Positions 9,380-63,356 of a DNA stretch of 64,000 bases are shown here, piece after piece. The notes under the pieces were generated by a model. It was given only the letters and a program-made list of their open reading frames with translations. It searched no databases and was not told where the DNA came from. Origin of the DNA: Pseudomonadales bacterium (GTDB lineage Bacteria; Patescibacteriota; Microgenomatia; UBA1400; PJMF01). Every line of letters starts with the position of its first letter. The stretch's first letter is position 1. Location: NCBI GenBank assembly GCA_020632265.1, contig JACKFW010000001.1, positions 218,981 through 282,980 of the forward strand. Direction: 5' to 3'. Made by a program: the position numbers and the translations under genes.

Positions 9380-9679
9380 TTATTTCTTCTTATCAAGCTT
9401 ATCTAAGCCTAAAATTGTAACGCCATAATATACAACCAAAGCAATTACTAGAAAATCAATTAAAACTCCAAGAAAACTTCCAATCATTATTTCTACTGAA
9501 CCAATCTTAATAATTGCAGTTTCAAGACCGCCCGCTGCACCAAGAACTATTCCCAAAAGCGGATTGATAATGTCACCAACAAGCGAAGCAACAACTTTAG
9601 AAACTGCTCCTCCCAAAATAAAACCAGTGGCCAAACCAACGACGCCTTGCTCTCTAATAAAATTCATGAAACCCTTCAT
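9380..9679 (-). CDS. mscL: Large-conductance mechanosensitive channel MscL.
   Basis: MKGFMNFIREQGVVGLATGFILGGAVSKVVASLVGDIINPLLG matches the MscL N-terminus and TM1 consensus. Length 99 aa with two TM segments. Confidence 0.75.
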   Translation of the reverse strand: MKGFMNFIREQGVVGLATGFILGGAVSKVVASLVGDIINPLLGIVLGAAGGLETAIIKIGSVEIMIGSFLGVLIDFLVIALVVYYGVTILGLDKLDKKK

Positions 9680-9828
9680 ATTATTTTCTCCTCAAGTATA
9701 GTTGTCACTATTATGTTATTAAAATGCCTAAGCATCAACTTAATAATACAATAGTTATAAAATAAATCAAAATGAAAATAAATAAATTAGTTCTTTATAC
9801 TTGCGCGTTTATTGTTTATGATTAATAC

Positions 9829-11520: not shown

Positions 11521-11535
11521 CAAAGAAATTAAAAA

Positions 11536-12582: not shown

Positions 12583-13108
12583 ATATTTATCATTACTAAG
12601 AAAAAGTATTATGGATAAAACCCAATTTTTAAAAAAATATAATGCTGGTTTTACCTTAATCGAATTAATTGTGGTAATTGCAGTTTTTTCAATTTTATTT
12701 TCAATTTCTTCAATTAGTTTGAGTGGATTAATTCCTAAAGCAAATTTTGTGACTCATTATGAATCCCTACTGTCAGATATAAAAGGACAACAACTTCGAT
12801 CAATGATAGGTGATACAAATGGCTCGGGTGATGGAAGTGCATATGGAATATATTTTGAAAGTAATCAATATACACTTTTCACTGGTCCTGCTTACAATCC
12901 AGTAGCAACTGATAATTATGTCATCGAACTTAGTCCTGGAATAAATATCACTGAAAATGTCCTTCCCTCTAGTAGTGTTGTTTTCTTACAAAATAGTGGT
13001 GAAATATCTGGATTTAATATTTTAACTTCTTCATTTAAATTAACTTCAGATTCGGGAGATGAAAAGCTAATCAATTTTAATGCGCTAGGGGTAGTGGTAT
13101 CAAATTAA
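12569..13108 (+). CDS. Minor pilin or pseudopilin (prepilin-type N-terminal cleavage/methylation domain).
   Basis: AGFTLIELIVVIAVFSILF has the G/FTLIE class III signal. The probable start is an internal Met that gives a shorter leader. Confidence 0.6.
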   Translation: MVKDKYLSLLRKSIMDKTQFLKKYNAGFTLIELIVVIAVFSILFSISSISLSGLIPKANFVTHYESLLSDIKGQQLRSMIGDTNGSGDGSAYGIYFESNQYTLFTGPAYNPVATDNYVIELSPGINITENVLPSSSVVFLQNSGEISGFNILTSSFKLTSDSGDEKLINFNALGVVVSN

Positions 13109-13109
13109 T

Positions 13110-15014: not shown

Positions 15015-15559
15015 TGCATAACAAAAATCTAACTAAAAATATTTTTCAAAAAGGCTTTAACATTCGCAAAAGTTTTTCCCTTCAAAAAGGCTTCACTCTC
15101 GTGGAATTATTAATTTACATGGGTCTTTCAATGATTTTGCTGGCAATTATTTCCGGAATATTTATATCAGTACTAAGTGTTAGAAACGAATCAATCAAAT
15201 CTTCAAGTTTGGAAAGGGAAGGAAGATATATTTTAGCCCGCCTTTCCCACGATGTTTACTCTGCTCAAGATATTATTGAGCCAGCTACGTTGGGCGAAAG
15301 CTCAACAACACTTCAATTATTAGTTAATTCTGACCTTTTTACCTACTCAATAAATGATGATAAACTATATTTAACAAATACATCTGGAACTCATTTACTC
15401 AGTGGTGAATCTGTGAATGTAATGAGTTTTAATGTTACTAGATTAGGTAACGAAGGTGGTAAAAATGCTGTTGAAATTGAACTCACTACTCAAAGTCAAA
15501 ATGTTTCAGAGGGTAAAATAGAAAATCGTAATTACCAATTTATTTTAGCGTTAAGATGA
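15011..15559 (+). CDS. Minor pilin or pseudopilin.
   Basis: KGFTLVELLIYMGLSMILLAI prepilin signal. Overlaps its neighbours by 4 nt. Confidence 0.6.
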   Translation: MMHNKNLTKNIFQKGFNIRKSFSLQKGFTLVELLIYMGLSMILLAIISGIFISVLSVRNESIKSSSLEREGRYILARLSHDVYSAQDIIEPATLGESSTTLQLLVNSDLFTYSINDDKLYLTNTSGTHLLSGESVNVMSFNVTRLGNEGGKNAVEIELTTQSQNVSEGKIENRNYQFILALR

Positions 15560-15945
15560 AAAATAACCATACTAAATCATCATCTGGACATATTTTAATT
15601 ACTTTGTTAATTGTAATGGTGGTGGGAATGATAATTAGTACTGCAGCAATTTCTTGGGTAATTGACAATACAATTGGCAACTCACAAACTCACCAAGGAC
15701 TTACTGCTCTAACTGCTGCCGAAAGTGGTATTGAAAATGCTATGCTATTACTACTAAGAAATCCTGATTATTCTGGAGAGGTATTGGAAATTGCAGACGC
15801 AACAGTTACCGTTACTGTTTCTGGATCAGATGAGAAGACTATTATTTCTCAATCAATCGAAAACAATTACTCAAGAAAAATTGAAGTAACTGCGACATAT
15901 ATCAATAATATTTTAACTATCACTTCTTGGAAAGAATCGATTTAA
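15556..15945 (+). CDS. Minor pilin-like protein (PilX-like, atypical signal).
   Basis: SSGHILITLLIVMVVGMIISTAAI has G followed by a hydrophobic helix but no Glu at +5. Operon position is between the pilins. Confidence 0.4.
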   Translation: MKNNHTKSSSGHILITLLIVMVVGMIISTAAISWVIDNTIGNSQTHQGLTALTAAESGIENAMLLLLRNPDYSGEVLEIADATVTVTVSGSDEKTIISQSIENNYSRKIEVTATYINNILTITSWKESI

Positions 15946-15949
15946 AAAC

Positions 15950-17065
15950 ATGAATAAAAGCAGCCACCAAATTATCTTCATTTATAAAAATAAATTGTTT
16001 TTTTGTCATCCTGAAAAAAAAGAGAGCTTAGAATTTCCCTTAAGTAGCGATATTATTAAAGATCTGACTATTATTGATGAAGCAAAGCTAAAAAAATCCC
16101 TAGAATCGTTTTTAAGCAAAACTCAAATAACTGATAATGAAACATTGATTATCTTAAATAAGAATACTTATTTTAGAACTACAATTGAAAGTCCTGAGCT
16201 AAACCCGGAAAACAATAAAGTTATAATTGATCAATTTTCTGATTTAGTACCTTTTGATGATATCTTTGTCAAACAATTTAACCTGCATAAAAAGTTAGAA
16301 GTTGTCGCTATTAATAGAGAATTTTACGAACCAATTTTAAGTGTTTTGCAAAAATTAAAATTTAATATAACTATGATTCTTCCAGATCTAGTAGTAAAAG
16401 ACTATATCGGCGAAGCTAGTTGCACACCAGAAGAAAACAGTGCGTTATTAAAAGTTTTAAATAAGCTTGGTCAATATGATCTCCTTGGATCGGGTCACAT
16501 ATTATTAAGTAAAACTAAAATTGATCTTGCTCCAATCAAAGCAGAAAACAAACGTCTATATATTTTGGTTGGTCTTTTTGCAATTTTAATTATAATGTTA
16601 GTTGGAGTAATTATTTTTAACTCTAATAGAACCTATGGTCCTCCAATCATAGATAAAATTCCACCGGAATTAGAGACAATAATTGAAACGAAAAAACCTA
16701 GTATTGCATCTGACTCATCTCAAGCTTCCAATTCAGGTGAGTTAAGTGAAGGAATTTCCAGTAGCTCATCTGCTCTTTTAGATTTAGATCAATACACATT
16801 GAGAGTCTTAAATGGTTCGGGAATAAGCGGACAAGCAAACGTTGTCAAAAGTGATTTGCAAAAAGCTGGTTTTAAAAATATTGATATTGGAAATGCGCAA
16901 AAAATTTCCTCTAATAAAACTCAAATACTACTAAATCCTAAATTACCTAGCGAAGTCAGAGCGCTACTTTTAAATGTTTTAGAAAATTTTGGACAAGAAT
17001 ACACTATCCAAGAAAATAGTGAATTAAACTATGACGTAGTGATAACAACTACCTCAGCCAATTAA
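15950..17065 (+). CDS. Pilus-operon protein of three parts: an approximately 190-aa cytoplasmic domain (possibly PilM N-terminal-like), a single TM, and a C-terminal extracytoplasmic LytR_C-like domain.
   Basis: TM segment LYILVGLFAILIIMLVGVIIF. C-terminal YTLRVLNGSGISGQANVVKSDLQKAGFKNIDIGNAQK...TQILLNP...DVVITT matches the LytR_C consensus VxVLNGxGxxGlA...L...GF.v...gNA. Confidence 0.4.
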   Translation: MNKSSHQIIFIYKNKLFFCHPEKKESLEFPLSSDIIKDLTIIDEAKLKKSLESFLSKTQITDNETLIILNKNTYFRTTIESPELNPENNKVIIDQFSDLVPFDDIFVKQFNLHKKLEVVAINREFYEPILSVLQKLKFNITMILPDLVVKDYIGEASCTPEENSALLKVLNKLGQYDLLGSGHILLSKTKIDLAPIKAENKRLYILVGLFAILIIMLVGVIIFNSNRTYGPPIIDKIPPELETIIETKKPSIASDSSQASNSGELSEGISSSSSALLDLDQYTLRVLNGSGISGQANVVKSDLQKAGFKNIDIGNAQKISSNKTQILLNPKLPSEVRALLLNVLENFGQEYTIQENSELNYDVVITTTSAN

Positions 17066-17149
17066 CATATATCTACTTGACCTATAAACAAAAAATGATC
17101 TATTATTAATGTATATATAGTAAATTATTAATTATAAGAAGGTCAACTT

Positions 17150-17611
17150 ATGAAACTGCCATCATTAAAAAAACTAAATAAAGGTTTCACCCTTATTGAG
17201 CTATTAGTTGTTATAGGTATTCTAGCTATTTTATTAGCTATAGTTCTTATTGCTATTAATCCGGCTAGACAATTTGCTCAAGCAAATAATACTCAGCGTC
17301 GAAGTGATGTTAATGCTATCCTAAATGCAATACATCAATATGCAGCTGATAACTCGGGTGCACTTCCGGCAGGTATAACAACTACCGCTACAAATGTATC
17401 TGACACAGGTGCTGATATTTGTGCATTACTAGTTTCTGATTATTTAGCAGCATTGCCAGTTGATCCAACTGCCGGAGAACCCGTTGATGAGGCAGGATGT
17501 GCACTCGAATATGACACAGGATACACAGTCGTTACCAGTGCAACAAATAATAGAGTCACTGTAACTGCTCCATCAGCAGAGTTGGGTGATGTTATTTCTG
17601 CAACAAGATAA
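17150..17611 (+). CDS. pilA: Major type IV pilin (PilA-like).
   Basis: MKLPSLKKLNKGFTLIELLVVIGILAILLAIVLIAINP is a classic type IVa prepilin signal plus alpha1 helix. SD AAGAAGG lies upstream. Length 153 aa. Confidence 0.8.
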   Translation: MKLPSLKKLNKGFTLIELLVVIGILAILLAIVLIAINPARQFAQANNTQRRSDVNAILNAIHQYAADNSGALPAGITTTATNVSDTGADICALLVSDYLAALPVDPTAGEPVDEAGCALEYDTGYTVVTSATNNRVTVTAPSAELGDVISATR

Positions 17612-36508: not shown

Positions 36509-38029
36509 GTGAAAAACAATACTATGGGTAACTTTGTAAGAAATTATTTTAAAATTCATCCCGTCAGAACTCAGCGTGCTCTAGAGATAATTCCAGGTCT
36601 CTTTTCCTGGGGACTAATTCTTTTTCCTTTTTGGGGATCACTAATTATACCCGATATAGTTGCTTATTATATTATTGCATTTGCAATCTATTGGCTATAT
36701 AAATCATTGCTTTTATCAGTCCTTGCAATTGCAGCTCACTTCAAAATTCAAGCCGCGAGTAAATTTGACTGGATTGCTGATATAAAAAAAGATTATCCAG
36801 ATACCTGGAACAAAATTCACCACTTAATTATTATCCCAACTTACAAAGAGCCTTTGACCACATTAAAACGAACCTTAAAAGCATTAAAAAATCAAAAAAT
36901 CCCTCTAAAAAATATTCATGTGATGTTATCATTTGAAGAGCGCGAAGGATCAGATGCTAGAGAAAAATCTAAATTGCTCTTAGAAGAATTCCGGGGAATT
37001 TTTGGAAACATGTGGACCACCTACCATCCTGATATCTTAGGAGAGGTAAAAGGCAAATCGTCCAATACTTGTTGGGGCGCTAAACAAGCAAAAAAAATTC
37101 TGATTGATGAACAAGGTCTTGATTTAAATATGGTCACAATTACTAGCGAAGACGCTGATGCGGTATTTCATCCCAATTATTTTGCAGCAGTTACTCAGGA
37201 CTTCTTGTTCGTAGAAGAACCTTACAACAAAATCTGGCAAGGAGCAGTAGTTTTTTATAATAACATTTGGAAAGTACCATCGGCAGTTAGAGTGCTTTCT
37301 TCTATGTATTCGGTAATTCAAATGCATTTACTAATGCGCTCAGATAGATTAATCAACTTTTCAACCTACACGACATCACTCAAGCACGTTGTGGACATTG
37401 ACTATTGGGATACTGATGTTATTCCCGAAGATTATCGACTATTTTTTAAATCTTATTTTGCTAAAAAAGGTAATTTTGATGTCAGACCAATATTTTTACC
37501 AATTCTTTCTGACGCCGCTGAATCTCATAATACCTGGTCCACTTATAATAATCTCTATCAACAACTTACTAGATGGGCTTGGGGCGTAAGTGATGATGCC
37601 TACATAATAAAACAATATGTTAAGGCCACTGAAATTCCTTTTTGGGATAAAACTATTAGAGTTTTTAAAACTATTCAAGATCATTTTTTATGGCCAGTGA
37701 ATTGGTTTGCAGTAACTATCTCAGCATTTTTACCTCCATTACTCAATCCAGTATTTAATAGAACAGTCTTGGGCAAAACTCTTCCTCAAGTTACTTCAAC
37801 ATTACTCACACTTTCATTAGTCTCAATGATCGTCGTATTTGTAATTGATGCAATGAATCGACCGCAAAGACCAAACCGATACAATCCACTTTCATATATC
37901 ATGCAACCACTGGAATTTTTACTTTTACCAATCATTGGCTTCTTCTTTTCTGCATTACCAGGAATAGATGCTCATACTAGACTTATGTTTGGAAAATATA
38001 TTGAATATAAGGTTACTGAAAAAGTATAG
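36509..38029 (+). CDS. Membrane-embedded processive family-2 glycosyltransferase (cellulose/chitin/hyaluronan-synthase-like).
   Basis: IIIPTYKEP (GT2 start), TSEDADAVFHPNYF (DxD region), QQLTRWAWG (QxxRW processivity motif), and N- and C-terminal TM helices. Confidence 0.65.
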   Translation: MKNNTMGNFVRNYFKIHPVRTQRALEIIPGLFSWGLILFPFWGSLIIPDIVAYYIIAFAIYWLYKSLLLSVLAIAAHFKIQAASKFDWIADIKKDYPDTWNKIHHLIIIPTYKEPLTTLKRTLKALKNQKIPLKNIHVMLSFEEREGSDAREKSKLLLEEFRGIFGNMWTTYHPDILGEVKGKSSNTCWGAKQAKKILIDEQGLDLNMVTITSEDADAVFHPNYFAAVTQDFLFVEEPYNKIWQGAVVFYNNIWKVPSAVRVLSSMYSVIQMHLLMRSDRLINFSTYTTSLKHVVDIDYWDTDVIPEDYRLFFKSYFAKKGNFDVRPIFLPILSDAAESHNTWSTYNNLYQQLTRWAWGVSDDAYIIKQYVKATEIPFWDKTIRVFKTIQDHFLWPVNWFAVTISAFLPPLLNPVFNRTVLGKTLPQVTSTLLTLSLVSMIVVFVIDAMNRPQRPNRYNPLSYIMQPLEFLLLPIIGFFFSALPGIDAHTRLMFGKYIEYKVTEKV

Positions 38030-38092
38030 TTGATGCAATTCTTTTCAAGATAACGTATACTTATTTTATAGTAATTAAGTCAAACAAATTCT

Positions 38093-39739
38093 GTGATAAA
38101 ACTCAAAAATCTTATTAAAAAAATAATTAAAACTGATAAAGTTTTAGATAAACAAACACCAATATTTTTGCTTTCAATTTTAGTATTAGTTTTAAGAATT
38201 CCAAATTTATTTGAACCATATTGGTATGGAGACGAAGGAATATATTTAACTATTGGGCAAAGCCTTAATAAGGGGGCAAAACTTTACTCTGAAATTATCG
38301 ATCATAAAACTCCGATTATCTATTATTTAGCACGAGTTCAAACACAACTTAATTTTCGTCTTCTAAACATAGGATGGATGATTTTTACAACCATAGCATT
38401 TTACTATTTTGCAAAAAAATTATTTAAGTCTGTAAAACAGACAACTTTAGCAACATTTATTTTTATCATTTTTACCTCCTTACCTTGGCTTGAAGGAAAT
38501 ATTCCCAATGGAGAATTGTTTGTTTTGGGTTTTGTGATGACTGGAGCAATAATAATCTCAAATACCGATTATTTTAAAGATTTTTTAAAATCTAATTTGA
38601 AGATTAAAGCTAATTGGCATAGTGTTCTAAAAAATTCAATAAACCTGATCACAGCTGGATTTTTTCTGGGATTAGGAATATTAACCAAAATCCCCGCAAT
38701 TTTAGACCTCGCCGTATTTTTTACCATCGGATACTTTACATTTACAAATAATCTTTTAGTTAACAGTTTTTCAAACAATTTAAAATTATTGGGCAAAAAA
38801 ATAGTTGAAATTGGTTTGCTTTCTCTTGGTGTATTAATTCCAATTTTAATTTCAATCATTTATTTTGTTTCCATAGGATCTGGACAAGAATACCTAGATT
38901 TTGGTCTTTTATATAATTTTAGATATGCTTCAAGTTGGCAATTACCATTTTCAAATCAATTATTAATATTTGCCTTTACCCTTCATGGAAAATTCATAAT
39001 CCTAACTGGAATCATATTATTTATTACTTTACTAAAAAAATACTTTAAACCTCATGTTCAATTTATTTTAAGTTGGTTTGGTTTATCACTTTTTGCTTCC
39101 TTGCTTTCAAATAGACCATACCCACATTATTTTATACAATTAGTTCCACCTCTTTCCTTACTTTTAACTTTAATTATTAAAAATAAATTTCTAATTTTAA
39201 AAAACTTCTTAAAATCCAAAAGACCAGAAATTAATGTAATTTTTCTCAATTTATTTACTGAGTCATTTTTATTAGTTGGGTTTATTGTAGTGATGATTTT
39301 ATTAAATTTTGCACCATATTCGACATCAAAATATTATTTAAATTGGTACAAATTAGTTACAAATAAAATTAACAATCAAGAATATAGACAAACATTTGAT
39401 TATCTAATGACTGATAATTACCTTGCGGCTGAAATTATTAAAGCTTCAGGATCAAAAAACATGTTTATTTGGGGTACAAACCCCATGCTATATGCCCTAA
39501 CTCAGACTCAACCAACTGGAAGATTTACTGTTTCATTTCACATAAAAGATTTTGATGCTTTTGGAGAAACTGTTAGAGATGTAATCAAAAAAGAACCAAC
39601 TTTTATAGTAGTAATGAAGAATGAGGATAATAACTTTCCTATATTTAAATCATATTTAAACCAATATTATCTGCCAAACAACCTTCAATTTGAGCACTTC
39701 ACTCTCTGGAAAAGAAAATATGATAGCCACAACAATTAA
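38093..39739 (+). CDS. GT-C fold glycosyltransferase (ArnT/PMT-like, polyprenyl-phosphate-sugar dependent).
   Basis: The first extracytoplasmic loop YWYGDEGIYLTIGQSL has a DE motif. Twelve or more TM segments over 548 aa. Confidence 0.5.
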   Translation: MIKLKNLIKKIIKTDKVLDKQTPIFLLSILVLVLRIPNLFEPYWYGDEGIYLTIGQSLNKGAKLYSEIIDHKTPIIYYLARVQTQLNFRLLNIGWMIFTTIAFYYFAKKLFKSVKQTTLATFIFIIFTSLPWLEGNIPNGELFVLGFVMTGAIIISNTDYFKDFLKSNLKIKANWHSVLKNSINLITAGFFLGLGILTKIPAILDLAVFFTIGYFTFTNNLLVNSFSNNLKLLGKKIVEIGLLSLGVLIPILISIIYFVSIGSGQEYLDFGLLYNFRYASSWQLPFSNQLLIFAFTLHGKFIILTGIILFITLLKKYFKPHVQFILSWFGLSLFASLLSNRPYPHYFIQLVPPLSLLLTLIIKNKFLILKNFLKSKRPEINVIFLNLFTESFLLVGFIVVMILLNFAPYSTSKYYLNWYKLVTNKINNQEYRQTFDYLMTDNYLAAEIIKASGSKNMFIWGTNPMLYALTQTQPTGRFTVSFHIKDFDAFGETVRDVIKKEPTFIVVMKNEDNNFPIFKSYLNQYYLPNNLQFEHFTLWKRKYDSHNN

Positions 39740-40086: not shown

Positions 40087-41142
40087 ATGATTCCATTTCT
40101 AATTGCATTATTATCAAGCTTTATTATTACTCCGATAATTATTAGTATTTATACCAAAAAAAATTGGTTAGATAATCCTATTCAAACTATTCATGTAAAA
40201 AAAACTCACTCAAAGCCTATTCCTAGAGGAGGAGGTTTAGTAATTTTTTTTGGGATTCTTGTAACATCTTTGATATTTTTACAATTTGATCAGCATTTAA
40301 TTGCAATTTTTATAGGAGCATTTTTATTAACTCTAGTTGGTACGTTGGATGATATTTATGATCTGCATCCAGCAATTAGGCTAGCTACCGGGCTAGTGGC
40401 GTCCCTCATTGTAGTTGGTTCTGGTATTGGAGTAGCATATATTACAAATCCTTTTGGACCTGGAGTAATTCATTTAAATCAACCTCAAATTTTACTAAAT
40501 TTATTTGGTACAACAAAATCAATTTGGGTATTAGCTGATATTTTTGCTTTATTTTTTATCATCTGGAATATGAATATTGTTAATTGGTCAAAAGGAGTTG
40601 ATGGACAAATGCCAGGATTTGTTAGTATCGCATTAATTTTTATTGGAATATTGTCAACGAGGTTTATAGATGATCCAACACAATTTAACACAGCCTATCT
40701 ATCTTTTATTGTTGCAGGAGCATTTGCTGGATTATTAATTTGGAATTGGTACCCTCAACGAATTTTGCCCGGTTATGGAGCTGGTTCATTAGCAGGATAC
40801 TTCCTTGCAATTCTAGCCATTCTTTCGGGTGCAAAAATTGCCACAGTTTTTATGGTATTAGGTTTACCTACTGCAGATGCAATTTTTACAATTATGAGAA
40901 GAATAATCGCTGGCAAATCACCTCTTTGGGGTGATCGTGGTCACATGCATCACAAAATGCTGGATGTTTTAAAATGGGGACGACGCAGAATTGCAGTTTT
41001 TTATTGGGCAAGTAGTTTTTTTCTTGGATTTTTATCGCTGTACTTGAATACTTCTGGAAAGTTAGTTACAATGTCAATAGTTTTTATTTTAGTTTTTGGC
41101 TTTTTAATTTGGGTTAAGATAAATAAAAAAGGATTAAGATAA
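40087..41142 (+). CDS. Polyprenyl-phosphate N-acetylhexosamine-1-phosphate transferase (WecA/MraY/WbcO family, GT4).
   Basis: NMNIVNWSKGVDGQMPG resembles NxxNxxDGxDG. C-terminal GDRGHMHHKMLDV resembles the DRxHxHH motif of WecA/TagO. Ten to eleven TM segments. Confidence 0.75.
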   Translation: MIPFLIALLSSFIITPIIISIYTKKNWLDNPIQTIHVKKTHSKPIPRGGGLVIFFGILVTSLIFLQFDQHLIAIFIGAFLLTLVGTLDDIYDLHPAIRLATGLVASLIVVGSGIGVAYITNPFGPGVIHLNQPQILLNLFGTTKSIWVLADIFALFFIIWNMNIVNWSKGVDGQMPGFVSIALIFIGILSTRFIDDPTQFNTAYLSFIVAGAFAGLLIWNWYPQRILPGYGAGSLAGYFLAILAILSGAKIATVFMVLGLPTADAIFTIMRRIIAGKSPLWGDRGHMHHKMLDVLKWGRRRIAVFYWASSFFLGFLSLYLNTSGKLVTMSIVFILVFGFLIWVKINKKGLR

Positions 41143-41156
41143 AAATTATTCATAAT

Positions 41157-42137
41157 ATGATCAGCATTCCTTTAAAAAAACCCTTTAATCAATCATTCGT
41201 ATATCTTGTTGCTAAAACCGCTAGACCACAACAATGGATAAAAAATCTAGCACTTTACGCAGCGTTAGTATTTTCTGGATTTTTTTTCTACCATCCGGCA
41301 GGAGAACCTTCATATTTTATGACGGTATCTTATGCATTTGTAGTTTTTAGTATTCTCACTTCAAGTATTTATTTTATAAATGATATTGTTGATTTTGAAT
41401 CTGACAAGCAACATCCTTTCAAAAAGAAAAGACCCATTGCGTCTGAATTGCTTAGCAGAAGTTCAGCCCTGAAGATTTCTTTACTTGGTCTATTTTTAGT
41501 TTTTATTTTATCAACTGGTTTAGCGCTATTTTTCAGAATCTTACTTCTAGCATATTTTTTACTTCAAATATTGTATTCCAAAAAACTCAAACATATTCCT
41601 ATCATTGATGTTGTTTCCATTGCCTCAGGGTTTTTGATAAGAATATATGCAGGAGCGGTTGTCATTAATCTTCATATGAGTGTTTGGTTTTTACTCACAG
41701 TGGTTTCTGCTTCATTATTTTTAGCAGTTGGAAAAAGACAGAGCGAAAGAACTTTGTTGGGAAATGAAAGTAATATTGGAACGACTCGACAATCTCTCAA
41801 ACGCTATAGCCAAAGACTTCTTGACCAGTATACTGGAATGTTTGCAAATGCTACTTGGCTCACTTATGCTCTCTTTGCATTTCAAAATGAAATCAGTGCA
41901 CCTAGACAAAAAATAGAATTAATTTACACATTCTTGCCCAAAGCACTTCACTCTCAAAAACTTTTAATGCTCACTATACCATTTGTAATTTTTGGCGTCA
42001 TGAGATATCTACAACTTGTCTACGAAAACAACCAAGGAGAATCACCTGAAAAAGTACTTTTAAACGATAAACCACTTTTAATCACGGTTGGATTATTTGG
42101 TGCAATAGTAATGTTTGTTACCTATATCCTAACTTAA
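41157..42137 (+). CDS. UbiA-family prenyl/phosphoribosyl transferase, decaprenyl-phosphate phosphoribosyltransferase (DPPR synthase)-like.
   Basis: YFINDIVDFESDKQHPFKKKRPIAS has the Asp-rich motif NDxxDxExD followed by HPxKxxRPIA, as in the Rv3806c-type subgroup. Eight to nine TM segments. Confidence 0.55.
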   Translation: MISIPLKKPFNQSFVYLVAKTARPQQWIKNLALYAALVFSGFFFYHPAGEPSYFMTVSYAFVVFSILTSSIYFINDIVDFESDKQHPFKKKRPIASELLSRSSALKISLLGLFLVFILSTGLALFFRILLLAYFLLQILYSKKLKHIPIIDVVSIASGFLIRIYAGAVVINLHMSVWFLLTVVSASLFLAVGKRQSERTLLGNESNIGTTRQSLKRYSQRLLDQYTGMFANATWLTYALFAFQNEISAPRQKIELIYTFLPKALHSQKLLMLTIPFVIFGVMRYLQLVYENNQGESPEKVLLNDKPLLITVGLFGAIVMFVTYILT

Positions 42138-42140
42138 ATT

Positions 42141-43493
42141 ATGAAGAAATTTGTTTCAAAGTACTACCCTCAATTATTACTGATAATTTTAGCCTTCTCA
42201 TTTTTTACTCGAATTTATAATCTTCACTTACCAGAAAAATATGTCTTTGATGAAGTCTACCATGCTGTGACAGCTAAATTAATTGCCGACAACAATCCAA
42301 TGGCATTTGAATGGAATAACACACCACCAGAACCCAATACTGCCATAGATTGGTTGCATCCTCCAATTGCAAAATATACTCAAGCTCTATCAATGAATTT
42401 ACTTTCAAAGAATTCATTTGGCTGGAGATTTAGCTCGGCAATCTTTGGAGTAATTGCAATTTTTTTAACAGCCAAACTTGCATATAATCTTTTTCATTCT
42501 AAATCGGTTGCATTAATTGCGGCACTTATAACATCATTGGATGGTTTGGTCCTAACAATGTCTAGAATTGCTATGAATGACATCCATGTAACAGTGTTCA
42601 TCCTCATGACTTTAAACTTCTATATTATTTATCTAAATACAAAGAGAACCGATAAAAAATTTCTTTTCTTTTCTGCAGCTTTTTCAGGAATAGCCATGGG
42701 CACAAAATGGTCTGGATTTTTTGCCTTAATAATAATCGGATTTTTTGAAACCATTAATTTACTTATAACTTTTTTTCATCGAGAAAAAATGGAAAAATTA
42801 AGTACAAAAATTCGCACATTTTTTAAAGAATTTTTATTTTTATTTACTTTGTTAATTATTTTACCCGGAACAATTTACATACTTTCATATAGTCAAATGT
42901 TTTTACAAGGAAAGAACTTCAATCATTTTATTGGATTGCATAAGAATATCTGGTCATATCAAACATCTCTTGTTGCTACCCACCCCGCACAATCAAAACC
43001 TATTGAATGGTTCTTAAACACTAAACCTGTTTGGATTTATGCTAATTGGCAAACAAATAAACGAGCAGATATATATGCTGTCGGTAATCCTATTCTTTTC
43101 TGGATTTCAGACATCTTTGTATTTATTAGTTTAATTTACAGTATATTTATTATTAAACACTATTATCAATCTAAAAAAATTGATTCAAAAAACTTAAATT
43201 TTTTACATTTAATAATTATGTATTTCGCTGTCTGGATTCCTTGGCAGTTTTCTCCCAGAATAATGTTCTTCTATCACTATCTCCCAGCAGTACCATTGCT
43301 TTGTATAAATACAGCCTACTGGCTAAATAAAATGATGCAAAAATCAAAGAATCAAAAAAAACTAGCAATATTAATTATCATGAGTTTTCTGATTACATTT
43401 ATAATTTGGTATCCTCATTGGACAGGCATATTTGTATCAGATGAGCTAAAAGAGTCCTTGTATTTTGCGCTTGATTCTTGGCAGCAAAAATAA
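42141..43493 (+). CDS. GT-C fold glycosyltransferase, GT39 (PMT-like)/ArnT-like.
   Basis: Loop-1 motif YVFDEVYHAV, as in the PMT DE motif FDEVHF. Polytopic, 450 aa. Confidence 0.55.
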   Translation: MKKFVSKYYPQLLLIILAFSFFTRIYNLHLPEKYVFDEVYHAVTAKLIADNNPMAFEWNNTPPEPNTAIDWLHPPIAKYTQALSMNLLSKNSFGWRFSSAIFGVIAIFLTAKLAYNLFHSKSVALIAALITSLDGLVLTMSRIAMNDIHVTVFILMTLNFYIIYLNTKRTDKKFLFFSAAFSGIAMGTKWSGFFALIIIGFFETINLLITFFHREKMEKLSTKIRTFFKEFLFLFTLLIILPGTIYILSYSQMFLQGKNFNHFIGLHKNIWSYQTSLVATHPAQSKPIEWFLNTKPVWIYANWQTNKRADIYAVGNPILFWISDIFVFISLIYSIFIIKHYYQSKKIDSKNLNFLHLIIMYFAVWIPWQFSPRIMFFYHYLPAVPLLCINTAYWLNKMMQKSKNQKKLAILIIMSFLITFIIWYPHWTGIFVSDELKESLYFALDSWQQK

Positions 43494-53740: not shown

Positions 53741-54760
53741 TTACAACTTTCTAAATTTTCTTCTCAGCATTTCAAAATAATAAGTTAAATGATAAAGAGG
53801 TGATAAAGAAATATCATGAGAAGGCAAATATTTAACTTCTTCGCCTCCAAATCCACGCTTGAATAATGAAACTCCCGTAAAACGATGATTTAGCTCGTTT
53901 TCAGGCGCAATTCCCCAAAAATTATACTTTATACACCCCCTTCTTTTAGCCTCTTTAATTGCAGCCCACTGACAAGCGTAACTACCTGCATACTTTCCAT
54001 TTTCAGGAGTAGAAATACCGTAATGATATACGGCTTCTTTATTATAAAAAATTATAAATGCTGTTGCTAACAATCTATTATTCAACTTTGAATGTATCAT
54101 CAGCACCTGATCATCTTCCAAAAATGAGATAAATTGATTATATAAAAAATCATATGTAAACGGTACAAACCCATGTTTTTTAGCAAGCTTGATTTGAAGA
54201 TCATAAAATTCTTTAATATCATTCTTATCTTTGGAAAAATTGATACTGATGCCTTCTCTATCAGATTTATTGATTGAATAACGCGTATTTTTCCTCATTT
54301 GCTTTAAAATTTCATCTTCAGAATTTTCTAAATTTAGTTGTAGAGTTAAATCTGCAGTCAAATGCATTTGTGAGGTTTTTGCACCAATTTTAGCAACAGT
54401 ATTTCTAAGTTCAATTGAATCTATTGCTTGAGGTCTAAATCTAATAAAGATAGCTCCTTTTTCTTTGGCAATTAATTTGATTTTTTCAAATACAAGATTG
54501 ATAAGCTCTTGATTGGTCCAATCAATTAATGGACCACCTGCAATTGAGATGTAAGTACCCCTTTTGGCTTTTTCACAAACAAGTAAAGCCATTCCCAAAG
54601 TAACGTTATTTTTTTGAATCAAAAGCCTGACAACTATCTTTCCCATTCTTTCTTGAAACAAACTCCAGTTCCAAGATTGCAAAAAATTTGCGTTCTTAAA
54701 TAATAAAATATTGCTTTCCCAAACATTTTTATCAGTAATATATAAAAAAGTAATATTCAT
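53741..54760 (-). CDS. FemAB-family (FemX-like) peptidoglycan-precursor aminoacyl/peptidyl transferase (GNAT-fold pair).
   Basis: N-terminal ...NANFLQSWNWSLF is typical of the FemABX start. Length 339 aa and operon context. Confidence 0.6.
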   Translation of the reverse strand: MNITFLYITDKNVWESNILLFKNANFLQSWNWSLFQERMGKIVVRLLIQKNNVTLGMALLVCEKAKRGTYISIAGGPLIDWTNQELINLVFEKIKLIAKEKGAIFIRFRPQAIDSIELRNTVAKIGAKTSQMHLTADLTLQLNLENSEDEILKQMRKNTRYSINKSDREGISINFSKDKNDIKEFYDLQIKLAKKHGFVPFTYDFLYNQFISFLEDDQVLMIHSKLNNRLLATAFIIFYNKEAVYHYGISTPENGKYAGSYACQWAAIKEAKRRGCIKYNFWGIAPENELNHRFTGVSLFKRGFGGEEVKYLPSHDISLSPLYHLTYYFEMLRRKFRKL

Positions 54761-54762
54761 AT

Positions 54763-55983
54763 TTAAAAATCGTTCAATGTTTTTATAATTTGGTTTGCCT
54801 GTTTGATTGATAAATTGATATGGGTTGGTAGATTTATAATCTCGCTTGAAAGTTTCTCAGCATTAGGGGCCAGTCCTTTCGTATAAAATGAGTCGCATTG
54901 ATATCTCCCACAGTCTACAGGATTTCGATACCATCTATCAGATAAAAATATTTTATTTTTCTTCATTAATTGAATAAATTTTTCAACTTCCTGAATTCTA
55001 ATTGAGAACCTAAGATTACTACCAAATAAGACATCCTCTTTTGAATTTATTATGCTAATTTTTTTATTAACAATTTTCTCAAGATACAAATTTGCAATTT
55101 TTCTTCGATGAATTATTTGCGATTCTAAATTACCTAAGGAAACTAGTGCTAAAGTGGAATAAGCTGGAGACATAGTACAAATATTTTTTATTTGACTAAT
55201 TGTTGGTGAGGTTATTAACTTTAAGGTTTTGGCTAATTTAATTATTAATTTTCCAGCCCAAACGTCATATAAATTGCGACCTAAATATGTCACTATTGGA
55301 TAAATTAAATCAATAAATAAATATTTTTTTGTTTGCTGAGATATTATGATTTCCTGAATTACTTTTAATTGATTATTCGTGAGTTCTTTAAAAACAACAG
55401 CTCCACCGGAAATTGAATCGATGACTTTATCTCTTCCAAATGAAAAAATTACCACATCGGCATTGTATCCCAATGACTGACCCAAACTATCTCTACCTCC
55501 AATTGATTGTGCCAAATCTTCAATCAATAATAAATTGTTTTTTTTACACCAAGCACTGATTTTTCCGATTTCTGCTGGAATTCCTAAGCTATGCTGAACT
55601 AACACCACCTTCGAATCTGGATTAGACTTAAAACTTGCTTGTAAAGTTTGAACGGTTAAATTTGTTGAATTTTCTGCAATATCCACATAAACTGGTTCAC
55701 CCCCGCCTCTCTTAATTCCTTCTTCAACGGCATAACAAGTAAAGGCTTGAGTTAAAATTTTTATGCGATCTTGAGATTTTTTTTGAGCTGATAAAACTCG
55801 AATGGAGAATTCAATTGCATCACGACCTTTATAAAATAAAAATGATTTGCCATGATAATTATCTTCTAAATATTGATTCAATTTTTGATGATCCTCGCTT
55901 GCGGAAACAAAAATCTGACTCAATGCGGTCAGTGCAAATTTAAATGTATAATTCGAACCCAAACTATTAAAAATTGATTTCAT
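54763..55983 (-). CDS. DegT/DnrJ/EryC1/StrS-family PLP-dependent sugar aminotransferase-like protein.
   Basis: KILTQAFTCYAVEEGIKRGGGEPVYVDI, LLLIEDLAQSIGG, and a Lys in VVIFSFGRDKVIDSISGGAVVF (compare SFHxxKxxxxGEGG). Confidence 0.6.
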   Translation of the reverse strand: MKSIFNSLGSNYTFKFALTALSQIFVSASEDHQKLNQYLEDNYHGKSFLFYKGRDAIEFSIRVLSAQKKSQDRIKILTQAFTCYAVEEGIKRGGGEPVYVDIAENSTNLTVQTLQASFKSNPDSKVVLVQHSLGIPAEIGKISAWCKKNNLLLIEDLAQSIGGRDSLGQSLGYNADVVIFSFGRDKVIDSISGGAVVFKELTNNQLKVIQEIIISQQTKKYLFIDLIYPIVTYLGRNLYDVWAGKLIIKLAKTLKLITSPTISQIKNICTMSPAYSTLALVSLGNLESQIIHRRKIANLYLEKIVNKKISIINSKEDVLFGSNLRFSIRIQEVEKFIQLMKKNKIFLSDRWYRNPVDCGRYQCDSFYTKGLAPNAEKLSSEIINLPTHINLSIKQANQIIKTLNDF

Positions 55984-55984
55984 A

Positions 55985-57457
55985 TTATTTTAAATATTCT
56001 TGCACCCATCCAGGCATTCTTCCTTCAATTATAACAACAAAGTTCTTATCTAAACTTAATAGATACTTAATAATTTTATCTTGATCACTTAATAGATTGT
56101 CACCAAATACTTGCGAAAATTCATTAATACCAGATAACCCTACAAATAAAACTTTATCAAAAGTTTTTTTAGACAATACAGCAAGCTCTCGATGAATTAT
56201 TGATGATTCTATTCCTAAATCAACAATTCCCGATGTAATTAAAACTTTTTTAGGTAAATTTAGTTCATTAGCTAGATCAATCACAGCACTAAATCCCTTT
56301 GGGTTAGTTGTTCCGCCATCATCAATAATTAAAAATTCATTTTTTGAAACAAATGAAAAGATAAATTTATCATCAGGAACAAAACTAGATAATGCATCAA
56401 CAATTTCCGAATCGGTCATATTAAATTTTTTTGCTATTAGTATCGCTATTTTAATTATTTCTAAATAATGTATTCCAATAAATTTTGTATTAACTTGCTG
56501 TCCATTCCAAACAAAATGTAACCTTCCAGATTTATTTAATCCAGTTTTTAAAATTTGAAGACCGCTAACCTCATTATCAGTTTTAATTATTTTTAAATCA
56601 TCTCTCTTTGAAGCCTGAATAATCTTTAATACGCCCATATCACTTCCATTTACAAATACTAGAGATTCTGGCGCCAAGGCTCGTAGTAGTTCGGATTTAG
56701 CTTGAATAATTGATTCCAGACTGCCAAATAGTCCTAAATGTTGACTTGTCAATCCAGTAATGACTGCTAAATTGGGCTTAAACCAATTTGCAAGTAGTCT
56801 AATTTCACCTATTTTATAAGCTGCGTACTCTATAATTGCGATTTTTTGATTTGAAAAATTATCATTAATGCTTTTAGCAACTGAAAATTTAGTGTTGTAA
56901 GATTTCGGTGTTTTAAAAACAGAATATTTTTTTCCTAAAACATGAGCTAAAAGAATTTTTGTGGAAGTTTTTCCATAACTGCCAGTAATACCAATAATAA
57001 TTGGTTTAACTTTATCAATTTTTCTTTTGGCTTTGAATAATTCGAATAATACTCTAATATAAACTAAAAATGAGGTTGGAGTTATTGCTAATATGACTAA
57101 AAGTGGCACAGCTAATAGAATAATAAATAAACTAGAAAGCAAATAAAATAATAGCGTTAAACCGTTAATTTGAAATGCAACTGCAACCAATAAATATACA
57201 ATTATCAACATTTCGACAAATATTATTGAACTAATAATTAAAATTCTGGGTGTAATTTTAGGACGCTTTAACCCAAACTTAGAAAAATCTTTTTTTTGTG
57301 GCAGTAATCGCAAAAATTCCCTTTGGCCTTCTGGAGTTTTCAAAAATAAAATAATTCGATCTAAACGATATTCTTTTTGTTGCACAATCGACAACCATCG
57401 CAATAATCTAATTCCATAAGATGAAAAAAATGCAAATAAAACTAATAAAGATTTCAT
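55985..57457 (-). CDS. MurF-like Mur ligase. The usual N-terminal domain is replaced by approximately 130 aa with 3 predicted TM helices.
   Basis: P-loop IIGITGSYGKTSTK. The central and C-terminal domains align with E. coli MurF over KPNLAVITGLTSQHLGLFGSLESIIQAKSEL and IIDDGGTTNPKGFSAVIDL. N-terminal hydrophobic segments include ILIISSIIFVEMLIIVYLLVAVAF and LFYLLSSLFIILLAVPLLVILAI. Confidence 0.65.
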   Translation of the reverse strand: MKSLLVLFAFFSSYGIRLLRWLSIVQQKEYRLDRIILFLKTPEGQREFLRLLPQKKDFSKFGLKRPKITPRILIISSIIFVEMLIIVYLLVAVAFQINGLTLLFYLLSSLFIILLAVPLLVILAITPTSFLVYIRVLFELFKAKRKIDKVKPIIIGITGSYGKTSTKILLAHVLGKKYSVFKTPKSYNTKFSVAKSINDNFSNQKIAIIEYAAYKIGEIRLLANWFKPNLAVITGLTSQHLGLFGSLESIIQAKSELLRALAPESLVFVNGSDMGVLKIIQASKRDDLKIIKTDNEVSGLQILKTGLNKSGRLHFVWNGQQVNTKFIGIHYLEIIKIAILIAKKFNMTDSEIVDALSSFVPDDKFIFSFVSKNEFLIIDDGGTTNPKGFSAVIDLANELNLPKKVLITSGIVDLGIESSIIHRELAVLSKKTFDKVLFVGLSGINEFSQVFGDNLLSDQDKIIKYLLSLDKNFVVIIEGRMPGWVQEYLK

Positions 57458-58164
57458 ATAATATAATCCGCAACTAAATCAGCAGTCTCCTTTGGATGAG
57501 TAAACTGCGGAGAATGCCTGGCATTTTTGATAAGATCTAATTCACTGTTTAAAATTGAATTGTTTATTAAAATTGCATTTTTTACTGGAGTTGTCGTATC
57601 GTTTTCACCCCAAATAATTTTTGTAGGACATTTTATTAAAATCAAATCATTGATAATTTGATCCTCTAGGATTTTTGACATTGTTTGTCTTAATAATGGA
57701 GATGCATTTTTGTAATCAGCTTCTCTAGCAATTTTATAAAGAATATTTCTAAAAAAGTCACCTTTAAAAATTGATTTTCCAAATTTACTTAATAATTTGA
57801 AAATCGATCTCTTAACTACTGCCCTAAATGACATATCCCTTATTCCAGAACTATCAATCAAAATAAGCTTTTCTACCTTTTGTGAATTTTGAGATGCAAA
57901 CCTGATTGCAAGTTGTCCTCCAAAGGAGTGTCCTAATAAAATTACTTTATCATTGCCGGTTTCTTGATATAAATAATTTTTCAACCAATTAGAATAATCA
58001 TTGAGATTCCAAACTTCATTTAATGGAGCTGTTAATCCCGGAATTTTTAAAAACTTAACTTTAATATGTTTTAATTCAAGCTCTTGAATAAAAGGCGTCC
58101 ACATTTCGTGACTTTTTTTTCCATCTCTGACAGCCCAACCATGTAAAATATATATTTTTTTCAT
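57454..58164 (-). CDS. Alpha/beta-hydrolase-fold protein (esterase/lipase-like).
   Basis: Nucleophile elbow LLGHSFGGQLA. Length 236 aa. A 4-nt ATGA overlap with the downstream MurF-like gene. Confidence 0.6.
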   Translation of the reverse strand: MKKIYILHGWAVRDGKKSHEMWTPFIQELELKHIKVKFLKIPGLTAPLNEVWNLNDYSNWLKNYLYQETGNDKVILLGHSFGGQLAIRFASQNSQKVEKLILIDSSGIRDMSFRAVVKRSIFKLLSKFGKSIFKGDFFRNILYKIAREADYKNASPLLRQTMSKILEDQIINDLILIKCPTKIIWGENDTTTPVKNAILINNSILNSELDLIKNARHSPQFTHPKETADLVADYII

Positions 58165-58259
58165 ATCATGTTATAGTATCCCAGTAGAATGCTTGGGAAT
58201 CAAGCTAATGATCAAAATTCTAAGTTGCATGGATCGTAATGATAAGTTAGTATCTAAAT

Positions 58260-62477: not shown

Positions 62478-63356
62478 ATGATTAAATTTTCTTCAGTCAG
62501 TAAATACTTTCCACCTGATACGTTTGCAATCAGTGATATCTCATTTGAGGTTGAACCAGGCGAACTAGTCTTACTCACTGGTCCTTCTGGATCGGGTAAA
62601 ACCACTATCATGAGACTACTTACCAGAGAATATATCGCCACAAAGGGCGATGTTATTTTTGCTGATATTGATTTAAATAAAGTGAAAAATTCAAAAGTTC
62701 ATGAAATCAGAAGAAAAATTGGAGTAATATTTCAAGATTATTTACTCCTTCCCGAATTAAATATCTGGGAAAACATCGCGTTACCACTATCGATTATTGG
62801 AAAACCACAAGCAGAAATTGAACAACGAGTTACGGACTTATTAACCTTGGTTTCTTTAACTGATAAAGCCTTTTTATTCCCAAAACAACTCTCTGGAGGT
62901 GAAGCACAAAGAATTAGTATTGCAAGAGCACTTTCAACAGCACCAGAGATAGTTTTTGCTGATGAACCAACTGGAAATCTTGATAGAGAAACTTCCTTGG
63001 AAATTGGAAAACTAATTAGAAAAATTAATTCATTTGGAACCACAGTTATTTTTGCCACTCATGATCATGACATAATGGATTTACTCAAGGATATTAGACA
63101 CATTGAGCTAGATAAAGGTAAAATAGTTCGAGATTCAAAGATTGCCAGATCTACTCAATCTGAAGCATCAACTGATAAAAATGAAATAACTACTAATAAC
63201 GATAAAAAAGATAAAGATGATAAAAAATCAAAAGAAGAAATAAAAGAAGCAACAAAGGAAGAAATAAAAAATAATAAGAACTCTGAGATGAATAAGGAAA
63301 ATTCAAAAAAAAGCGCTAAAAAAAGTAAAAAGATAAAGCCAAAAGAAGAAAAATAA
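62478..63356 (+). CDS. ftsE: Cell-division ABC ATPase FtsE, with an approximately 70-aa Lys/Glu/Asp-rich C-terminal tail.
   Basis: Walker A GPSGSGKTT. ABC signature LSGGEAQRISIARAL. Walker B IVFADEPTGNLD. The tail is ...KDKDDKKSKEEIKEATKEEIKNNKNSEMNKENSKKSAKKSKKIKPKEEK. Confidence 0.85.
   Translation: MIKFSSVSKYFPPDTFAISDISFEVEPGELVLLTGPSGSGKTTIMRLLTREYIATKGDVIFADIDLNKVKNSKVHEIRRKIGVIFQDYLLLPELNIWENIALPLSIIGKPQAEIEQRVTDLLTLVSLTDKAFLFPKQLSGGEAQRISIARALSTAPEIVFADEPTGNLDRETSLEIGKLIRKINSFGTTVIFATHDHDIMDLLKDIRHIELDKGKIVRDSKIARSTQSEASTDKNEITTNNDKKDKDDKKSKEEIKEATKEEIKNNKNSEMNKENSKKSAKKSKKIKPKEEK

Follow-up and report, generated by a model that had tools for sequence, protein, structure and literature searches.

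Organization of the locus

The DNA described here is a 64,000-nucleotide (nt) stretch of contig JACKFW010000001.1 (positions 218,981 to 282,980; assembly GCA_020632265.1), referred to throughout as the window. Between positions 53,741 and 58,164, four consecutive genes on the minus strand encode an α/β-fold hydrolase, a ligase that resembles the peptidoglycan enzyme MurF, a DegT-like protein and a Fem-like transferase. We propose that the 490-amino-acid (aa) ligase, whose gene is annotated "hypothetical protein" in the source genome, is this Patescibacteria organism's own peptidoglycan MurF, representing a membrane-anchored subtype of the enzyme; from the comparisons described below, we put the probability of this reading at about 0.75. 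An earlier note, made from the sequence alone, had listed the four genes with one 4-nt overlap and gaps of 1–2 nt, and both the coordinates and the family matches agree with that description. The hydrolase and ligase genes share a 4-nt ATGA overlap, and are probably co-transcribed and translationally coupled, while the ligase and DegT genes are separated by 1 nt and the DegT and Fem genes by 2 nt. The features of the locus are as follows:

57454–58164, minus strand: α/β-fold serine hydrolase, predicted cytosolic, 236 aa, first gene of the operon (Pfam Abhydrolase_1)
55985–57457, minus strand: membrane-anchored MurF-type ligase, 490 aa (Pfam Mur_ligase_M, NCBIfam murF)
57008–57457, minus strand: N-terminal membrane module of the ligase, residues 1–150 (hydropathy, predicted helices)
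57245–57409, minus strand: cytosolic motifs within the membrane module, residues 17–71 (ortholog alignments)
56966–56992, minus strand: P-loop of the ligase, GITGSYGKT, residues 156–164 (alignments)
54763–55983, minus strand: DegT/DnrJ/EryC1-family enzyme dependent on pyridoxal phosphate (PLP), 406 aa (Pfam, 113.5 bits)
53741–54760, minus strand: FemX-like aminoacyl-transferase, short form, 339 aa (Pfam FemAB)
58165–58259, no strand assigned: 95-bp divergent intergenic stretch separating the operon from a cyclophilin gene, probable operon promoter region (gene layout)

The ligase core

The Mur_ligase_M domain (PF08245) was found in the ligase with an E-value of 1.4e-26. Among the NCBIfam models, murF (TIGR01143) gave by far the highest score (172.8 bits), followed by MurD (57), MurC (46), MurE (38.5) and cyanophycin synthetase (≤28). 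The murF alignment extends over residues 143–476 of the ligase and positions 65–402 of the profile, and MurF chains in the PDB match the ligase only from residue 142–154 onward; the canonical N-terminal domain, already noted as missing, is indeed absent. MurF accounted for seven of the nine PDB sequence matches and ranked first.

A model of the ligase was built with AlphaFold2 (AF2) from 80 orthologues, with a predicted local distance difference test (pLDDT) score of 95.2 and a predicted template modelling (pTM) score of 0.90. When this model was compared with the PDB using Foldseek, the ten best matches were all MurF structures (E-values of 1e-22 to 1e-18), with the next tier, at ≈1e-15, made up of MurC, MurE, pseudomurein ligases and cyanophycin synthetase. 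The identity to PDB MurFs is 19–23%. The MurF-like character proposed from the sequence alone is thus borne out by profile and fold alike. An identity as a poly-γ-glutamate synthetase (PgsB/CapB), FolC or cyanophycin synthetase was rejected: neither PgsB/CapB nor FolC was matched at E ≤ 0.01 in NCBIfam, and the fold ranking pointed to MurF. The suggestion of a capsule-like polymer made by a PgsB-type enzyme is not supported by this result.

The residues expected of an active Mur ligase are conserved in the alignments, including the P-loop, E210, H240, K254 (where Mur ligases carry a carbamylated lysine), N270, D379/D380, the DDxxxxNP motif, and GxxxLG with the His that follows it. These residues indicate that the ligase is a catalytically intact MurF-type enzyme that does without the canonical N-terminal domain. 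The signature of the membrane-anchored subtype is a Tyr in the P-loop (GSYGK), at a position occupied by Ser in both canonical MurF sequences compared.

The N-terminal membrane module

Residues 1–150 of the ligase did not match any Pfam family, the sole hit being FA_desaturase with an E-value of 3.5. In a Kyte–Doolittle (KD) analysis, the 19-residue mean reached 2.8–3.0 over residues 67–140. The first helix is moderately hydrophobic and lies under the threshold of 1.6 in the window protein; in most orthologues it is above it. The AF2 model has helices at residues 2–27, 32–49, 70–94 and 99–115, and a long helix at 117–150 that enters the first strand of the ATP domain. The earlier claim of three strongly hydrophobic helices therefore holds as far as a membrane anchor is concerned (19-residue means of up to 3.0 and the helices of the model), except for the lower hydrophobicity of the first helix in the window protein. 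From the model, the module appears to consist of a first transmembrane (TM) helix, a basic cytosolic loop, and two further TM helices, the last of which runs on as a stalk helix. Residues 25–69, which link the first two hydrophobic helices, include 13 that are Lys or Arg. Since the ATP-dependent domain has to lie in the cytoplasm, we infer that this loop does so as well, with the N-terminus outside. By the positive-inside rule, two Arg/Lys-rich motifs should then face the catalytic domains.

It is in these two juxtamembrane motifs (including K28, K64 and T69), and not in the TM helices, that the conservation of the module is concentrated. The motifs read R..RW....QQKEYR.DR, followed by a G and then by KRPK.T.R. 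In an alignment of 22 sequences, R17, R20, W21, Q26, Q27, E29, Y30, R31, D33, R34, G44, R65, P66 and R71 are invariant. When the alignment was extended to 80 sequences, Q26, E29, Y30, R31, R34, R65, P66 and R71 remained invariant, and the other motif positions were conserved at ≥90%. In the distant members examined from outside the candidate phyla radiation (CPR), such as those from Poribacteria, Clostridiaceae and Chamaesiphon, the motifs recur as LQxxxYxxxRF/Y and then KKPLxFTxRA, with a varying number of TM helices.

We considered the possibility that the hydrophobic N-terminus was a separate small open reading frame, joined to the ligase by a sequencing error. An in-frame stop precedes the ATG by 8 codons, the frame is continuous, and >100 orthologues (40–58% identity) have the same start, length and architecture. 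The artefactual fusion is thus rejected, and the N-terminus is genuine.

A profile made from the first 150 residues matched only 171 clusters among 1.84 billion representative proteins. In the full-length matches, which are ≈440–650 aa long, the module is placed N-terminally, and the shorter matches are apparently fragments. All ten of the distant matches submitted to Pfam had Mur-ligase domains, and in the full-length non-CPR members the only Pfam domains found were Mur_ligase_M and Mur_ligase_C. One metagenomic protein (P0208, 649 aa) appears to be a natural fusion in which a FemAB domain follows the membrane-anchored ligase without an intervening DegT domain. In two other members the hydrophobic part is reduced: the ligase of a Patescibacteria metagenome-assembled genome (MAG; locus L013, 9968–11341) has both cytosolic motifs and no strongly hydrophobic helix, and that of L076, which has both motifs too, has only one such helix. 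The subtype may thus be represented here by soluble or peripheral forms.

The replacement of the canonical N-terminal domain across the whole family by TM helices with Arg/Lys-rich juxtamembrane motifs, and the confinement of this module to these ligases, would also be expected if the enzyme were a MurF homologue that acted on a membrane-embedded acceptor, such as MurNAc-tripeptide linked to undecaprenyl-pyrophosphate (MurNAc, N-acetylmuramic acid). The peptide stem would then be completed after MraY, and the module would bind the lipid pyrophosphate. However, the L013 protein retains the motifs without a strong hydrophobic helix and the number of helices ranges from ≈1 to 6, which fits an anchor better, and the gene order (see below) puts the ligase before mraY. 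We consider a lipid-linked acceptor unlikely.

Relatives and genomic position

Relatives were collected by scanning GTDB, with one genome per species, for the patterns QQKEYRxDR and G[IV]TGSYGK[TS]. This yielded confirmed relatives from at least 585 species genomes, every one with the P-loop GxTGSYGK, and 80 of the loci were examined. In the 80 ligases examined, the P-loop is located at residue 100–250 and is preceded by a hydrophobic N-terminus, mostly of two to six helices. The carriers include CPR, Clostridia, Chloroflexota, Poribacteria, Bdellovibrionota, Omnitrophota, Methylomirabilota, some Cyanobacteria and Chlamydiia.

In several groups of carriers, the ligase gene lies within the division and cell wall (dcw) cluster or another group of peptidoglycan genes. 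Six Poribacteria species have the order mraW-ftsI-murE-hydrolase-ligase-ddl-mraY-murD-ftsW-murG-(murC), which was confirmed with Pfam for one locus (L025); a Poribacteria dcw copy and the window ligase share 31% identity in an alignment of 398 aa that takes in the last TM helix. A Gottesmanbacteria genome (Microgenomates, as is the window organism) has pgeF-murC-murB-murA-glmU-like-hydrolase-ligase-DegT-(two genes)-Fem-mraY-ftsW-murG, and in a Woesebacteria genome mraY-ftsW-murG come after the four genes. Parcubacteria, Saccharibacteria and related CPR have ftsI-lysS-serS-hydrolase-ligase-DegT-Fem-ftsQ. In all five of these groups the orthologue occupies the murF slot, which the window operon, located elsewhere, does not. 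No further MurF-like sequence was found within 10 kb of the ligase in ≈90 loci. These positions agree with the earlier proposal that the operon is concerned with the synthesis of wall precursors.

Within the dcw cluster of many such CPR genomes, genes for lysyl-tRNA synthetase (lysS, 539.7 bits) and serS directly precede the hydrolase–MurF pair, namely, at loci L012, L014, L017, L021–L023, L033, L054, L062, L065, L072 and L074, and at L078 serS alone does so. Most of the loci preceded in this way continue with DegT and Fem, and L054 continues with Ddl.

Two groups of genes flank the operon in the window, recA, rny, secG and SBP_bac_5 in one direction and cyclophilin, DUF4012, prfB and ftsEX in the other, and form with it a strongly syntenic housekeeping region. 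Neither a dcw cluster nor another Mur ligase, ddl or mraY was found in the 64-kb window or in the 10 kb beyond its right end. Microgenomates relatives share the gene order of the four-gene unit and of its flanks to an extent far beyond chance expectation. The simplest reading is that the ligase is the MurF of all these organisms; in the lineage of the window, the unit would have moved out of the dcw cluster.

The location of the operon outside the dcw cluster, the score of the ligase below the murF cutoff (see below) and the presence of a DegT-family enzyme with no obvious role in standard peptidoglycan synthesis might instead suggest an accessory system, devoted to a non-canonical decoration (as the earlier note had favored) or to a PgsB-like polymer, with a canonical murF elsewhere in the genome. 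Against this, the orthologues sit in the murF slot of dcw or peptidoglycan clusters with no other murF nearby; the closest folds are MurF, without a PgsB/CapB or FolC signal; the ligase gene belongs to the syntenic core of genomes of ≈1 Mb; and the operon lacks any dehydratase or oxidoreductase gene for keto-sugar formation. The results point to the genuine housekeeping MurF that the same note had named as the alternative to its proposal. An accessory system is thus very unlikely, and a decoration system of that kind does not agree with where the orthologues are found.

The hydrolase

The first gene of the operon encodes a protein that matches Abhydrolase_1 (PF00561, 3.2e-16) and carries the motif GHSFGG. 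It has no hydrophobic segment, the maximum 19-residue KD mean being 0.86. H79-S80-x-G82-G83, D189 and H217 are conserved at ≥90% in 78 hydrolase orthologues from CPR and non-CPR genomes. With its conserved Ser-Asp-His triad intact, the protein is, as judged from the alignment, very probably an active enzyme. Its best NCBIfam matches are generic esterases (EstV and BioH), all far under the cutoff.

In 75 of the 80 loci, across phyla, the gene immediately before that of the ligase encodes a homologue of the hydrolase, while the other neighbors change. The hydrolase–ligase pair is a conserved module far beyond the lineage of the window.

CPR genomes are compact and strongly syntenic, and the sequence of the hydrolase, with its esterase matches far below cutoff, does not reveal what the enzyme does. 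Both facts would be accommodated if the membrane module were a mere anchor, and if the hydrolase, DegT and Fem genes had become neighbors of the ligase gene by compaction of housekeeping genes, with no shared pathway and a hydrolase unrelated to MurF. Compaction does not readily account for an adjacency that recurs in CPR, Clostridia, Chloroflexota, Poribacteria, Bdellovibrionota, Omnitrophota and Cyanobacteria, for the ATGA overlap of the two genes in the window, or for the apparent ligase–Fem fusion. It is quite unlikely that the neighborhood arose in this way alone.

The DegT-like and Fem-like proteins

The DegT-like protein matches DegT_DnrJ_EryC1 (PF01041) with an E-value of 1.6e-32 and 113.5 bits. 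The PLP ligands D156 and K186 are conserved at ≥90% in 26 orthologues taken from the loci and invariant in an alignment of 58 sequences. The AF2 model (pLDDT 96) has the fold-type I PLP fold, with the Schiff-base Lys and the Asp that contacts the pyridine nitrogen. Foldseek returned many sugar aminotransferases (E-values of 1e-22 to 1e-18, 14–22% identity), none of which stood out. In this search, which the earlier note had proposed for picking the nearest characterized enzyme, the top matches were all sugar aminotransferases, and the protein resembles many of them equally well. No NCBIfam equivalog was reached, the best being PseC (86.7 against a cutoff of 423.5). A dehydratase or oxidoreductase gene for making a keto-sugar was found neither in the operon nor in the conserved flanks.

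The Fem-like protein matches FemAB (PF02388) with an E-value of 1.3e-38 and 133.4 bits, against a cutoff of 24, and lacks a coiled-coil insertion. Its PDB matches are FemX and FemA of S. aureus (420–426 aa) and FemX of W. viridescens (335 aa). The catalytic motif F300-K301 is conserved. The score with the FemX equivalog (NF047883) is 66.5, compared to a cutoff of 500. In W. viridescens FemX, K36 and R211 presumably bind the phosphates of the precursor; the residues aligned to them in the window protein are Gln (Q36) and Phe, in a pairwise alignment that is weak. Because of this weak alignment and the Gln and Phe at these positions, the acceptor substrate of the Fem-like protein is uncertain.

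Ddl or DegT and Fem downstream of the ligase

The gene that follows the ligase is of one of two kinds. In 45 of the 80 loci it is ddl; these comprise all of the non-CPR phyla, except for L034, together with two CPR loci (L054 and L066). Two additional CPR loci that were found through a Ddl search (L087 and L088) are also of the Ddl type, and at L087 a small GNAT acetyltransferase gene (9518–9985) is located between the ligase and ddl. DegT and Fem follow the ligase, as in the window, in 23 of the 80 loci, nearly all from CPR. Neither arrangement was found in the remaining 12 loci, and several of those contigs end near the ligase. The two arrangements did not occur together within 10 kb at any locus, nor was ddl found within 10 kb in the window locus or in the 23 DegT/Fem loci. 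The only locus with a non-CPR label and the order hydrolase-ligase-DegT-Fem is L034 (JBBING010000003.1, labelled Chloroflexota), which could reflect horizontal transfer or a mis-binned contig.

A search with a CPR Ddl returned relatives whose few source names were Parcubacteria-type CPR or unclassified, and ddl was located just downstream of the hydrolase–ligase pair in both of the contexts checked. In a crude neighbor-joining tree of the ligase domains, to be given low weight, the ligases separate by partner type, with the Ddl-linked CPR copies grouping with the Ddl-linked ligases. The ligases of the Fem group have an H422 and an EGR motif like those of canonical MurF, and those of the Ddl group are canonical-like in R365 and N383; this residue comparison gave no clear sign of an altered amino-acid substrate. 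Nelson and Stegen 2015 (PMC4508563) noted a "pentaglycine bridge" protein in the majority of OD1 genomes, though not in every one, a distribution that fits the dichotomy between Ddl and DegT/Fem.

A more far-reaching idea is that DegT and Fem functionally replace Ddl in the CPR lineages where they take its place downstream of the ligase, so that in much of the CPR the stem would be completed without an ATP-grasp D-Ala-D-Ala ligase. A tRNA-dependent synthase of the Fem type might make the dipeptide used by MurF, or an alternative C-terminal unit, and the PLP enzyme might then process the product. The mutual exclusion of the two arrangements in 68 loci, the presence of lysS and serS before the module in several CPR lineages, the lack of conservation at the precursor-binding positions of FemX and the division of the ligases by partner in the crude tree are all consistent with such a replacement, which we nevertheless regard as improbable.

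Proposed role of the operon

The mechanism that we propose starts from a MurF core joined to a membrane module, a hydrolase–MurF pair that is conserved across phyla, a setting among peptidoglycan genes in the relatives, and active-site residues that are intact in all four proteins. In the membrane-anchored MurF, the soluble nucleotide-binding N-terminal domain is replaced by the membrane module, with three TM helices in the window protein. The enzyme would add the dipeptide to the MurNAc-tripeptide linked to uridine diphosphate (UDP) at the membrane, near MraY, so that the last cytoplasmic step is tethered. The basic juxtamembrane motifs might stand in for the lost domain and bind the substrate through its nucleotide or pyrophosphate, or else bind a partner. 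The hydrolase may act on the dipeptide or on the precursor, in editing or trimming or as some other accessory enzyme; one option is an editing role analogous to that of PgeF for MurC. Most CPR lineages, that of the window among them, have two more genes after that of MurF. The FemX-like transferase would most likely add a branch residue, derived from aminoacyl-tRNA, to the stem peptide. For the DegT-like enzyme, the most likely role is the modification of a nucleotide-linked (UDP-linked) precursor, which is a guess, made reasonable by the fact that UDP-MurNAc-peptides are nucleotide-sugars.

Several points weigh against the assignment as the organism's own MurF. The murF score of 172.8 is lower than the curated TIGR01143 cutoff of 288.6. 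This shortfall coincides with the missing N-terminal domain, which is again missing in the non-CPR members of the subtype (204–263 bits on the same model). Mur_ligase_C (PF02875) remained below its threshold by sequence (19.2 against 28.4 bits). The C-terminal Mur domain is nonetheless present, as the AF2 model superposes on MurF over 358–365 columns that include this domain, and its DDxxxxNP and GxxxLG...H motifs are kept. The Arg of the GR motif (position 365), invariant in two canonical MurFs and in the Ddl-linked members, is a Phe in this clade. Canonical MurF binds UDP through its N-terminal domain in solved structures, and the apparent loss of that domain leaves the recognition of a UDP-linked substrate to be explained. 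The operon lies outside any dcw cluster in this genome, between the SBP_bac_5 gene and the cyclophilin gene. Finally, that the 1.08-Mb genome has a single murF, and that it has ddl, murD, murE and mraY, is inferred from relatives.

Mur ligases, which have long been pursued as antibiotic targets, are described in textbooks as soluble enzymes of the cytoplasm. The role proposed here is an ordinary, housekeeping one; it is the build that is unusual, with a subtype and conserved partners that are unexpected for Mur ligases. The ligase is best classed as a MurF in ancestry and proposed function that departs from the curated family in two defining features, namely, the N-terminal domain and the score cutoff. 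One consequence concerns annotation, since proteins of the subtype fall under the curated murF cutoff. If the proposal is confirmed, the hand-over from cytoplasm to membrane in peptidoglycan synthesis would be organized differently across a large part of bacterial diversity, a new enzymatic step (that of the hydrolase) would be attached to the MurF/Ddl stage, and the alternation between Ddl and DegT plus Fem would provide a testable handle on the wall chemistry of CPR. In the literature searched, of which the full-text coverage was incomplete, neither a membrane-anchored MurF nor the hydrolase–MurF pair, a MurF-DegT-Fem operon or the alternation with Ddl was found described, so that an earlier description is possible.

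Surroundings of the operon in the window

The G+C content of the window is ≈30%, and scans of this AT-rich sequence for promoters and terminators were uninformative. A site on the minus strand at 58245–58217 agrees with the −35/−10 pattern at 9 of 12 positions; such sites are no commoner here than in shuffled sequence. No tRNA genes or Rfam elements were found in the 64-kb window.

A separate envelope-glycan module is located at 40087–43493 on the plus strand and comprises a GT4 polyprenyl-phosphate sugar-phosphate transferase, a UbiA-family prenyltransferase and a PMT/GT-C glycosyltransferase; a GT2-like protein and a 548-aa protein without a Pfam match are encoded upstream of it (36509–39739). 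The GT4 gene (40087–41142) was considered as a candidate for MraY and rejected, with 22% identity and E = 0.017 to CPR MraY. Four kb from the MurF operon begins a run of genes for FtsE, FtsX, a papain-like peptidase (Peptidase_C39_2), a Lamin-tail-domain protein and VanZ, which extends from 62478–63356 of the window into the 10 kb past its right edge (L089, 10001–14683) and is syntenic with the MurF operon in relatives. It matches the patescibacterial VanZ-2/ABC/peptidase/LTD operon of the Lipocone paper (PMC12419801). A type IV pilus cluster (9829–17611, plus strand) encodes a PilB-like ATPase, a PilC-like platform protein and three proteins with the prepilin-type N-methylation motif, as well as a 634-aa LVIVD-repeat protein and a LytR_C-domain protein.

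The label "Pseudomonadales bacterium" of the source MAG (NCBI H6772_01275) looks wrong; the gene content, the 30% G+C, the genome size of ≈1 Mb and the closest homologues are those of Patescibacteria. The labels "uncultured Pseudomonadales" and "Gammaproteobacteria" on similar MAGs (L007, L010–L012, L014 and L037) likewise look wrong.

Comparison with known systems

The PgsB/CapB poly-γ-glutamate synthetases have the Mur-ligase fold and a hydrophobic N-terminus in common with the window ligase. The latter, however, is MurF-like, and the neighbors of the subtype are the hydrolase, DegT and Fem or Ddl, and dcw genes, instead of pgsC and pgsA. The DegT-like protein shares its fold and PLP ligands with the DegT/DnrJ/EryC1 sugar aminotransferases (ArnB, PseC, QdtB, WbpE and others), but differs from them in its low identity (14–22%), in equivalog scores far below cutoff, in having no keto-sugar partner gene, and in its location in a peptidoglycan-precursor operon.

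The Fem-like protein is most readily compared to FemX of Weissella viridescens (UDP-MurNAc-pentapeptide:L-Ala transferase, PDB 1NE9), which is of similar size (≈335–339 aa for the two proteins), also lacks the coiled-coil arm and has the Phe-Lys motif. The gene for the window protein follows that of the enzyme that would make UDP-MurNAc-pentapeptide. The differences are the FemX-equivalog score (only 66.5 against 500) and the Gln and Phe at the positions of K36 and R211, in the weak alignment mentioned above.

With canonical MurF (TIGR01143; PDB 1GG4, 3ZL8, 4CVM and 4QF5), the subtype shares the central ATP-binding and C-terminal domains, the order of the motifs, the catalytic residues and, in the orthologues, the dcw position. 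It is set apart by a membrane module of ≈100–240 residues instead of the N-terminal domain, by the Tyr in the P-loop, and by an upstream hydrolase that looks obligate. The gene order resembles that of the murF-ddl and ddl-murF pairs of dcw clusters and of Firmicutes, such as the ddl-murF pair of B. subtilis. In 45 of the 80 loci, Ddl, the supplier of the dipeptide substrate, likewise comes directly after the subtype ligase, whereas in the window and in 23 of the 80 loci, DegT and Fem are found in the place of Ddl.

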